Shown here: positions 17,182 to 18,401 of the stretch, piece after piece
How the letters are laid out: each line of letters begins with the position of its first letter
Numbering within the stretch: the stretch's first letter is position 1
DNA from: a virus
Lineage: Duplodnaviria > Heunggongvirae > Uroviricota > Caudoviricetes
Direction: 5' to 3' (one strand)
Length of the DNA: 52,480 nucleotides
Virus record (IMG/VR): IMGVR_UViG_2740892112_000005
Notes under the pieces: generated by a model
Seen by the model: the letters and a program-made list of their open reading frames with translations, nothing else
Told to the model about the DNA's origin: nothing
Database searches by the model: none
Made by a program: the position numbers and the translations under genes

Positions 17182-18401
17182 TTTCCACCTCCTGCATCCC
17201 GCCCTCGTTTTGCAGCCAGGGTCCAGCCTGATGAATGAGCTTCTCCGGGTTTATCACCGGTCATGCTGTTGCAGTGCCACAACGAGCCCCCCCACGTCAC
17301 CGTATCGCCGGGGTGGTAGGTTTCGCCGGTTCTGAATACACCGCGATAGAGCATCACCGGCAGGGAAAATGTTTTTTCCGTACACTGGCCACTGCTCTGC
17401 CGGACCACCACAGTGAACGACCGTTCGCCGGTCATGCTGACGTCAATATCGGCCACCCCGTCAACCAGGCATTCCCATCCCCGCATCCCGTGCGTTTTTT
17501 CATACGCCCGCCAGAGTCCGCCCTGGTGTGTGGCATACGTGCCCCGGGGAAAGGATTTTTGCTCATCAATCGCCGGGAATATTTCCAGTGCCGTAGCATC
17601 ACGCCCGTCCTGTGGAGCCGGCAGGGCACTCACCGCATCCAGAACCGCCTTCTGCAGAACTTCCGGATCGTAGTCACGACCGTCGCGCGGAACGGGGATA
17701 TGACTCACGGCATCCGTCACCATCTGCTCGAGCATCGGACGCACATCATCCGGTGTGATACTTTTTCCATCTGCCGGTACCGGAAGTTTTCCGACAGCGT
17801 CATTCACCGCCCTCAGCAGCACCTCCGGATCATAATCACGACCATCGCGCGGAGCAGGGATATGACTCACTGCGTCCTTCACCATCTGCTCGATCATCGG
17901 GCGTACATCATCCGCAGTGACACTTTTACCGTCCGCCGGTACCGGTATTTTCGCGACCGCATCATTCACCGCCTGCTGCAGCACCTCCGGATCATAATCA
18001 CGACCATCGCGCGGAGCAGGGATATGACTCACTGCGTCCTTCACCATCTGCTCGATCATCGGGCGTACATCATCCGCAGTGACACTTTTACCGTCCGCCG
18101 GTACCGGTATTTTCGCGACCGCATCATTCACCGCCTGCTGCAGCACCTCCGGATCATAATCACGACCATCGCGCGGTACCGGAATGGCCCCCACGGCGTC
18201 ATTCATCATCGCCTGCAGAACAGGGCGCACCTCATCCACCGTCACATGCTTCTGTAACAGAGCAGACAGGGAAGCCAGTTTCTCTTCAAACGCCCCCGAC
18301 TGTGCGGCCATCTTCTCCTCAAATGTGCGCTGTAAATCCGCCAGCACCGTGGCGAATTCTTCACCCAGCGCACGGATAATGGACAGTTCACGCTCTGTCA
18401 T
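17178..18401 (-). CDS. structural protein with four tandem 54-aa repeats (possible head decoration/fibre protein)
   Basis: 407 aa; repeat unit ...IPAPRDGRDYDPEVLQQAVNDAVAKIPVPADGKSVTADDVRPMIEQMVKDAVSH...; sits between portal and connector genes. Confidence 0.5.
   Translation of the reverse strand: MTERELSIIRALGEEFATVLADLQRTFEEKMAAQSGAFEEKLASLSALLQKHVTVDEVRPVLQAMMNDAVGAIPVPRDGRDYDPEVLQQAVNDAVAKIPVPADGKSVTADDVRPMIEQMVKDAVSHIPAPRDGRDYDPEVLQQAVNDAVAKIPVPADGKSVTADDVRPMIEQMVKDAVSHIPAPRDGRDYDPEVLLRAVNDAVGKLPVPADGKSITPDDVRPMLEQMVTDAVSHIPVPRDGRDYDPEVLQKAVLDAVSALPAPQDGRDATALEIFPAIDEQKSFPRGTYATHQGGLWRAYEKTHGMRGWECLVDGVADIDVSMTGERSFTVVVRQSSGQCTEKTFSLPVMLYRGVFRTGETYHPGDTVTWGGSLWHCNSMTGDKPGEAHSSGWTLAAKRGRDAGGGK
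17655..18190. repeat. tandem direct repeats, period 162 bp, about four copies (two near-identical), inside the 407-aa CDS
   Basis: Copies beginning near 17821, 17983 and 18145 are nearly identical at nucleotide level; a more diverged copy starts near 17659. Confidence 0.7.

Follow-up and report, generated by a model that had tools for sequence, protein, structure and literature searches.

T4 fibritin (wac) is anchored in the virion by its N-terminus, continues as a repetitive helical stalk and ends in a small folding or head domain at the C-terminus; its gene adjoins the neck genes, and the protein is present in low copy number at the portal vertex. The gene for SPP1 gp7/MuF lies directly downstream of the portal gene, and its product is bound to the portal and in other phages is sometimes fused to it. 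Collagen-like decoration proteins are known from other phages as well, for example gp12 of SPP1. Lactococcal siphophages carry accessory carbohydrate-binding modules on their virions, the neck included, which are thought to be adsorption aids (PMC6669499).

By analogy, the 407-aa protein described below would work most like such a neck or vertex fibre, either T4 fibritin or the lactococcal neck structures bearing a carbohydrate-binding module (CBM). It resembled T4 fibritin in its modular fibre layout and would share its location, and PDB searches by sequence and by fold gave no match between the two. The stalk is made of PxPxDG-plus-helix units and not of a heptad coiled coil as in fibritin, and the C-terminal domain is CBM5/12-like. 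Compared with the lactococcal neck structures, the sequences are unrelated, the hosts are Gram-positive and the gene position is different (PMC6669499). The 407-aa gene family shares with SPP1 gp7/MuF the genomic slot and the occurrence of portal fusions, but the protein has no MuF domain (no Pfam match to Phage_Mu_F at E<=0.01), and its fibrous, CBM-tipped architecture is unlike gp7. The likeness to CBM5/12 modules lies in the fold of aa ~351-397 and in the motif Y-x-x-GD-x-V-x-x-G-x-x-W; unlike those modules, this region is part of a beta domain of 140 aa in which a pair of Cys residues is conserved, and it scored under the Pfam threshold. As in other surface proteins and phage fibres whose length varies through tandem repeats, the units are a multiple of three nucleotides long, polymorphic in number and marked by concerted evolution, and nothing in this was unusual. 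A literature search found no experimental description of this protein family.

The repeats lie in a separate gene behind the portal gene

The window, that is the whole stretch of 52,480 nucleotides that was analysed, is a lambdoid prophage of E. coli whose head and tail genes are those of Stx1/Stx2c-type long-tailed phages (genus Pankowvirus). On its minus strand the genes follow in the order small and large terminase, protease/capsid fusion, a 73-aa ORF, portal, repeat gene, Ad1, Hc1 head closure, gp10-like protein, tail completion protein gp17, major tail protein with an Ig-like domain, tail assembly chaperones and tape measure protein. The features around the repeat gene are:

16855-17181, minus strand: Ad1 head-tail adaptor gene
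17178-17181, minus strand: GTGA overlap, the TGA stop of the 407-aa gene over the GTG start of Ad1
17178-18401, minus strand: 407-aa gene, conserved as the next gene downstream of the portal gene; its product is acidic, modular and fibre-like
18398-18401, minus strand: ATGA overlap, the portal TGA (18398-18400) over the ATG start (18399-18401) of the 407-aa gene
18398-19762, minus strand: HK97-type portal gene, 454 aa, with the portal domain wholly in aa 54-382 (PF04860, E 1e-81; TIGR01537, E 2e-106)
19974-21995, minus strand: prohead-protease/major-capsid fusion gene

The nearest solved relative of the portal was the HK97 portal (8cez). The portal domain (PF04860 or TIGR01537) was not found in the 407-aa ORF, and an NCBIfam search of this ORF gave no match. 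On the evidence of the ORF, the synteny and the missing portal domain, the repeats sit in a genuine separate gene that is paired with the portal gene in a head module like that of HK97.

The position of this gene between portal and connector genes had originally been regarded as unusual, but it proved to be invariant. Since a full-length alignment of the family contained no conserved stretch, an alignment of the C-terminal domain was used to scan for loci in one genome per species. The 54 loci obtained came from Enterobacterales, Pseudomonas, Caballeronia/Paraburkholderia, Rhizobiales and others, and nearly all of those on a sufficient contig encoded terminase, a protease-capsid fusion, portal, a homologue of the repeat gene and usually Ad1. 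A second sample was selected by the portal and comprised 80 IMG/VR loci, 71 of them with enough intact DNA. The gene directly followed the portal gene in all 71, as a separate ORF in 65 and fused in 6. Locus L150, the lone apparent exception, has a tape-measure-like gene after the portal gene and is a deletion derivative. As the module spans Enterobacterales to Rhizobiales, nothing is out of the ordinary about this position in the lineage.

The repeat array and its variation in length

Tandem Repeats Finder reported a period of 162 bp with 3.3 copies, 92% matches and a score of 868 at 17644-18176, and a second repeat search gave 3 copies at 162-bp spacing. Together with an in-frame comparison these searches defined the following features:

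17538-18185, minus strand: tandem array of four 162-bp/54-aa units, stalk-forming
18024-18185, minus strand: unit u1, aa 73-126
17862-18023, minus strand: unit u2, aa 127-180
17700-17861, minus strand: unit u3, aa 181-234
17538-17699, minus strand: partial unit u4, aa 235-288

Units u1 and u2 were mismatched at 4 of 162 nt and had an exact repeat of 199 nt in common, while u3 was 85-87% identical to u1 and u2. Of u4 the first half alone was preserved, with 54-57% nucleotide identity overall, and the C-terminal domain follows it. Each 54-aa unit is composed of two half-units of ~27 aa, each with [IL]PxPxDG and then a helix, so that the array contains 8 motifs. The original prediction of four 54-aa repeats was correct as to the units, but only three of these are full and the fourth is partial. 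Its further claims, that two units are almost identical at the nucleotide level and that they arose by recent duplication, agreed with the near-identity of u1 and u2 and, for the duplication, also with the in-frame variation of copy number among close relatives. Because of the 199-nt exact repeat and the Tandem Repeats Finder score, the repeats cannot be attributed to chance. An assembly artefact, named beforehand as a possible refutation, was ruled out by the presence of the exact 407-aa protein on 316 contigs, complete genomes among them, and by 71 complete-genome records that matched the gene at >=99% nucleotide identity.

The lengths of the complete ORF at 38 E. coli-type loci were 245 aa (1 locus), 299 aa (5 loci), 353 aa (12 loci), 405 or 407 aa (17 loci), 461 aa (2 loci) and 569 aa (1 locus). 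Apart from two 405-aa alleles, which stop two residues early, the lengths at these loci differed in exact steps of 54 aa and corresponded to 1-7 units. The 353-aa and 299-aa alleles are the window allele less exactly one and two units, respectively, and the exact 353-aa allele occurred on 637 contigs. Other genera varied likewise, the proteins of relatives ranging from 289 to 556 aa. The expected change of repeat number in frame was thus found when related prophages were compared, near-identical E. coli alleles holding 1-7 units. Units of the same gene averaged 95.2% nucleotide identity, and units at the same position in different genes 90.5%. This difference indicates concerted evolution, with continuing duplication, deletion or conversion, and the idea of recombination was upheld because the units of one gene resembled each other more than those of different genes. 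With 162 bp equal to 54 codons, near-identical units and a polymorphic copy number, the array has the properties of an in-frame variable-number tandem repeat; the phenomenon is true but ordinary. Repeats and several prophage copies per genome break short-read assemblies. The best 120 database matches were mostly 'partial' proteins on short contigs, and one locus had a run of N inside its repeat array.

The portal junction and the ancestry of the gene pair

The two reading frames meet at a short homopolymer:

18413-18417, minus strand: G5 tract, seven codons ahead of the portal stop; G5 gives two genes, G6 an 859-aa portal-fibre fusion

In Stx2c phage 2851 the portal is a single CDS of 859 aa. 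The fused proteins read ...AMFRGDT[AE]KMTERELS, while the window reads ...AMFRGILRK* and then MTERELS; the sole difference between fused and window alleles was the G tract (GGGGGG vs GGGGG). The match of the fused 2851 protein to the portal domain was limited to aa 45-388. PGAP treats 17178-19762 as a single 'frameshifted' portal pseudogene in a genome with 100% identity to the window over the repeat gene. The portal gene and the 407-aa ORF are called a single pseudogene because many E. coli phages are fused by one extra G. The profile phrog_2271 ('portal protein', 859 positions) spans both ORFs, with the portal ORF on its positions 1-451 and the repeat ORF on 455-859. The 407-aa ORF matched phrog_2271 (E 1.9e-256) and phrog_1289 (E 1.4e-194), both 'portal protein' PHROGs, and this name reflects the fused E. 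coli sequences and not a portal function of the 407-aa part.

Both states of the junction were common. The exact window portal (454 aa) was present on at least 1000 contigs and the exact 2851 fusion on 806. Among complete E. coli genomes, the exact window-type G5 59-mer occurred in at least 213 records and the 2851-type G6 60-mer in at least 747, and some complete genomes carried both junctions. At 54 loci from IMG/VR and phages the tract was G5 in 43 cases, G6 in 10 and G4 in 1. The G5 locus L094 was identical to the G6 loci L097 and L100 over 730 flanking nt, a difference due to either recent slippage or a read error. The assumption that G6 is tied to one haplotype was dropped, as the larger sample contained G5 and G6 on the same flanks. 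Fusions were also found outside the E. coli G6 type, namely at L152 and P0276, which are 69% identical to each other, and at L157. The L152 fusion retains a relic ATGA in another frame. The ancestral Met persists in fused alleles and may still give rise to free protein.

The genome record of phage phi330 contains several indels in the region of the portal and repeat genes, which makes its gene structure unreliable, and the phi330 study, which included virion mass spectrometry, held no portal or fibre data in its text or supplement. Several prophages of O157 Sakai with a slightly different head-gene organisation have been scored as portal-defective (PMC2669165). The G5 state may be the reason for this score.

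The distribution of the family was determined by searching 1.84 billion cluster representatives in full with HMMER at E<=1e-3. Relatives of the 407-aa protein amounted to 5540 cluster representatives (clusters at 50% identity). A portal domain was present in 1 of the top 149 representatives, the other 148 being stand-alone proteins. The stand-alone relatives in this set were 123-862 aa long, nearly all initiated by Met, and contained 0-16 repeat motifs. PF28083 was precomputed on many homologues. In every assessable locus of the C-terminal-domain scan (~50 species) the homologue was a separate ORF overlapping the portal stop, with ATGA, TGATG or an overlapping GTG or TTG start. The portal C-terminus ...RG[FLIM][LI]xK*, found as RGFLTK* and RGLLTK* in relatives, shares its frame with RGILRK* of the window. 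The split form also occurs in the isolated Salmonella phage FSL SP-016. The G tract was seen only in the E. coli lineage, and other genera have AGAGGA or other sequences at this place. Comparison of these sequences shows that the two-gene G5 layout is ancestral and the 859-aa fusion of E. coli phages derived by one base (G6). The label 'frameshifted portal pseudogene' is therefore an annotation artefact.

Protein architecture and probable site in the virion

The protein was modelled with AlphaFold2 using 97 homologues (mean pLDDT 78.7). Besides the stalk the following parts were distinguished:

18252-18395, minus strand: N-terminal amphipathic helix, aa 3-50, the presumed anchor or oligomerisation segment
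17193-17612, minus strand: conserved C-terminal beta domain, aa 264-403
17211-17351, minus strand: CBM5/12-like (chitin-binding-type) fold, aa 351-397

The N-terminal helix was predicted with block-mean pLDDT values of 89-97 for aa 1-40 and 83 for aa 41-50. Its hydrophobic periodicity was 3.6-3.67 residues, and such a helix was present in all lineages despite differing sequence. In the stalk, nine shorter helices were modelled between PxPxDG loops (pLDDT ~55-75), each unit forming loop-helix-loop-helix. The stalk differed by lineage: collagen G-X-Y repeats took the place of the PxPxDG-plus-helix units in L063 and L066-L070, L056 had 61-aa helical repeats, and others had almost no stalk. No collagen G-X-Y repeats were found in the window protein, while 9 of the 97 homologues had collagen matches and 26 matched tail-fibre PHROGs. 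A PDB sequence search with the whole protein gave weak matches to designed helical repeats alone. The pI was 4.9 with a net charge of -20, and the family median pI was 4.8.

The beta domain was modelled with high confidence (pLDDT 94-98 for aa ~275-400). The fold of aa ~351-397 resembled solved chitin-binding domains (2d49, 2rts and 1aiw). Pfam CBM_5_12 scored 20.2 bits on the 407-aa protein, under the cut-off of 26.2, and matched 38 of the 97 homologues at E<1e-3 (best 6.3e-8); the profile of the C-terminal domain matched the Pyrococcus chitin-binding domain 2rts with E 9e-4. Membership in CBM5/12 is therefore supported by the fold and the family profile, at a score below threshold for the window sequence. 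From Enterobacterales to Burkholderiales the domain was 50-70% identical, with the motifs GGLWR, GWEC and GDTVTWGGSLWHC, and its conservation was similar to that of the portal across very different hosts. The modular AlphaFold2 architecture, the CBM5/12-like domain and the collagen stalks of homologues bear out the earlier suggestion of a fibre-like protein.

With a probability of roughly 60%, the protein would form a fibre, present in few copies at the portal vertex or neck, that uses its distal domain to bind a conserved glycan and varies in reach with the number of repeats. The N-terminal helix would serve as anchor or for oligomerisation, the 54-aa units as stalk, and the CBM5/12-like tip as putative glycan binder. 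The gene is translationally coupled through its ATGA start overlap with the portal gene and its GTGA stop overlap with the adaptor gene, and from these overlaps we infer that few copies are made, matched to the synthesis of the portal-vertex proteins. Homologous recombination, unequal crossing-over or slippage between near-identical 162-bp units would change the length of the stalk, which would thereby differ among otherwise near-identical prophages.

The protein could instead be an internal head protein on the portal crown, its N-terminal helix docking on or continuing the portal C-terminus. This arrangement, likened to SPP1 gp7 or the P22 portal barrel, is unlikely in our judgement but deserves serious consideration, and ejection might bring the CBM5/12-like domain to the peptidoglycan. 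It would agree with the invariable place of the gene directly downstream of the portal gene and the translational coupling of the two, with independent stable portal fusions (E. coli G6, L152 with P0276, and L157) and with a C-terminal domain conserved across hosts, which suggests a conserved ligand. An external fibre was rated the likelier because of the collagen-like or hypervariable stalks, the CBM tip and the strong acidity of the protein; such stalks, the CBM tip and the tail-fibre PHROG matches are typical of external adhesins. Furthermore, a family length of about 170 to more than 860 aa fits poorly with spanning a fixed distance, a covalently fused copy could not be ejected, and with the ancestral Met retained in fused alleles the free protein may still form.

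Some observations nevertheless speak against an external fibre. Phages 2851 and phi330, both viable, carry stable fusions to the portal C-terminus, as do at least 747 complete-genome records, and in another lineage the fusion persists across 31% divergence. The C-terminus of solved portals points into the capsid, and a fused copy is therefore expected to be internal. Conservation of the C-terminal domain across hosts is unusual for a host-specific receptor binder, and the AlphaFold2 model of the stalk was of moderate confidence only.

A more doubtful proposal is that the family forms a detachable portal extension, either a free coupled protein or a covalent C-terminal appendage, and that E. 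coli G5/G6 toggles between both. If so, G5/G6 would be a heritable switch in head-vertex structure, and the recurrent stable fusions (at least three lineages) would report physical contact of the portal crown with a fibre-like protein.

The 'head decoration' of the original prediction, a capsid-wide fibre on hexamers or pentons, fits the fibre-like, CBM-tipped architecture but is improbable, since the gene is coupled to those of the 12-copy portal and the adaptor and not to the capsid gene, implying a low copy number, and since portal fusions are hard to square with placement all over the capsid.

Programmed frameshifting or phase variation of the G tract, yielding free and portal-fused forms, was considered very improbable. 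A -1 slip of tRNA-Gly on A-GGG-GG, with the candidate site CAGGGGGAT, would give exactly the fused reading, and both states are common and occur on identical 730-nt backgrounds (L094 vs L097 and L100). However, no slippery site was conserved outside E. coli, and the single pair with identical background is explicable by a read error in a draft assembly. Tracts of five or six G are short for efficient slippage.

Least credible was the reading of PGAP, PHROG and earlier prophage studies that a frameshift inactivated a portal gene and the ORF is its C-terminal half: the pseudogene call for 17178-19762, the coverage of both ORFs by phrog_2271 and the predominance of exact G6 over G5 junctions (at least 747 vs at least 213 complete E. 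coli records) were opposed by an entire portal domain in the upstream ORF, by conservation of the split frame, the overlap and the portal C-terminal motif (~50 species; 65 of the 71 portal-selected loci), by a family dominated by stand-alone proteins and by a G tract confined to the E. coli lineage, with AGAGGA in relatives.

The added value of the analysis lies in the intact gene pair, the large fibre family coupled to the portal gene and the question of recurrent portal fusion. Thousands of E. coli prophages, those of Stx1 and Stx2c phages included, are scored as having a 'frameshifted' or defective portal, while the split state is indicated to be intact; the corrected annotation alters sequence-based judgement of prophage integrity and of the inducibility of Stx phages. 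The large family is tied to one type of head module across the Proteobacteria, with a tip predicted to be of the glycan-binding type and a stalk whose length varies within populations. If the low-copy fibre at the portal vertex is an adsorption fibre, the repeat number could affect the encounter with the host; a location on the portal within the head would make the protein a portal accessory of a new kind.

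G5/G6 difference at the portal-fibre junction

The layout of the portal and fibre genes was set by a single-base difference in a G tract upstream of the portal stop. Five Gs, as in the window, gave two coupled genes, whereas six gave a fusion of 859 aa.

18413-18417, minus strand: G tract (G5), seven codons upstream of the portal stop
18398-18401, minus strand: portal/fibre stop-start junction

In E. coli, the G5 and the G6 state are each common. Among complete-genome records of this species, at least 213 carried the exact G5 junction haplotype and at least 747 the exact G6 haplotype, with one exact junction haplotype counted per state. 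The 730 flanking nucleotides of one G5 locus were identical to those of G6 loci. The G5 state is labelled a frameshifted pseudogene by PGAP.

Beyond the E. coli type, portal-fibre fusions were found in two further, distant lineages, one represented by locus L152 and protein P0276 and the other by locus L157.

L152, 4001-7732: portal-fibre fusion
P0276 (database protein): portal-fibre fusion
L157, 3902-5752: portal-fibre fusion

L152 and P0276, both fused, shared 69% identity, and a relic ATGA stop/start was still present in L152 in a different frame.

Frame breaks and assembly of the repeats

In the near-identical strain MCJCHV-1 (NZ_CP030111.1), PGAP also called the prophage tail-fibre, gpJ and DUF6645 genes frameshifted. 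The J ORF is open in the window.

~1662-8234 and 28154-30135: counterparts of the genes flagged in MCJCHV-1
4552-8244: J ORF, 1230 aa, open

In the deposited genome of the plaque-forming Pankowvirus vB_EcoS_phi330 (PV189401.1), the reading frame was broken at several points, affecting the tail of the portal gene as well as the fibre, gp10 and tail-tube genes; these breaks resemble sequencing indels. The phi330 fibre gene carried a G6 tract and five of the repeat units.

The repeat array of the fibre gene from Phytobacter diazotrophicus (L038) was interrupted by a run of Ns, and the majority of the best 120 E. coli database matches (P0002-P0120) were 'partial' proteins on contigs of 1.6-8 kb. 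Short-read assemblies are evidently broken by the repeats and by multi-copy prophages.

An antisense ORF across the array was rejected as a gene, because its own translation is repetitive and marks it as a by-product of the repeats.

17235-18257, plus strand: antisense ORF, 340 aa

Neighbouring genes

19974-21995, minus strand: prohead protease (Peptidase_S78) and HK97-type major capsid protein in a single 673-aa ORF
19708-19929, minus strand: 73-aa ORF between capsid and portal genes
31844-32096, minus strand: cluster of three tRNA genes (Arg-tct, Arg-tcg, CAT anticodon)
14929-15711, minus strand: major tail protein with C-terminal Ig-like domain (Ig_3, I-set)

The protease-capsid gene precedes the portal gene rather than following it, an order common to nearly all related loci. 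The 73-aa ORF, which had no family match, shares 55 nt with the start of the portal gene and is kept in Enterobacterales relatives with 48-56% identity. The CAT-anticodon tRNA was assigned to Met by ARAGORN and to Ile by PGAP in a near-identical genome. The Ig-like domain of the major tail protein gives the virion a second decoration that putatively binds glycans.
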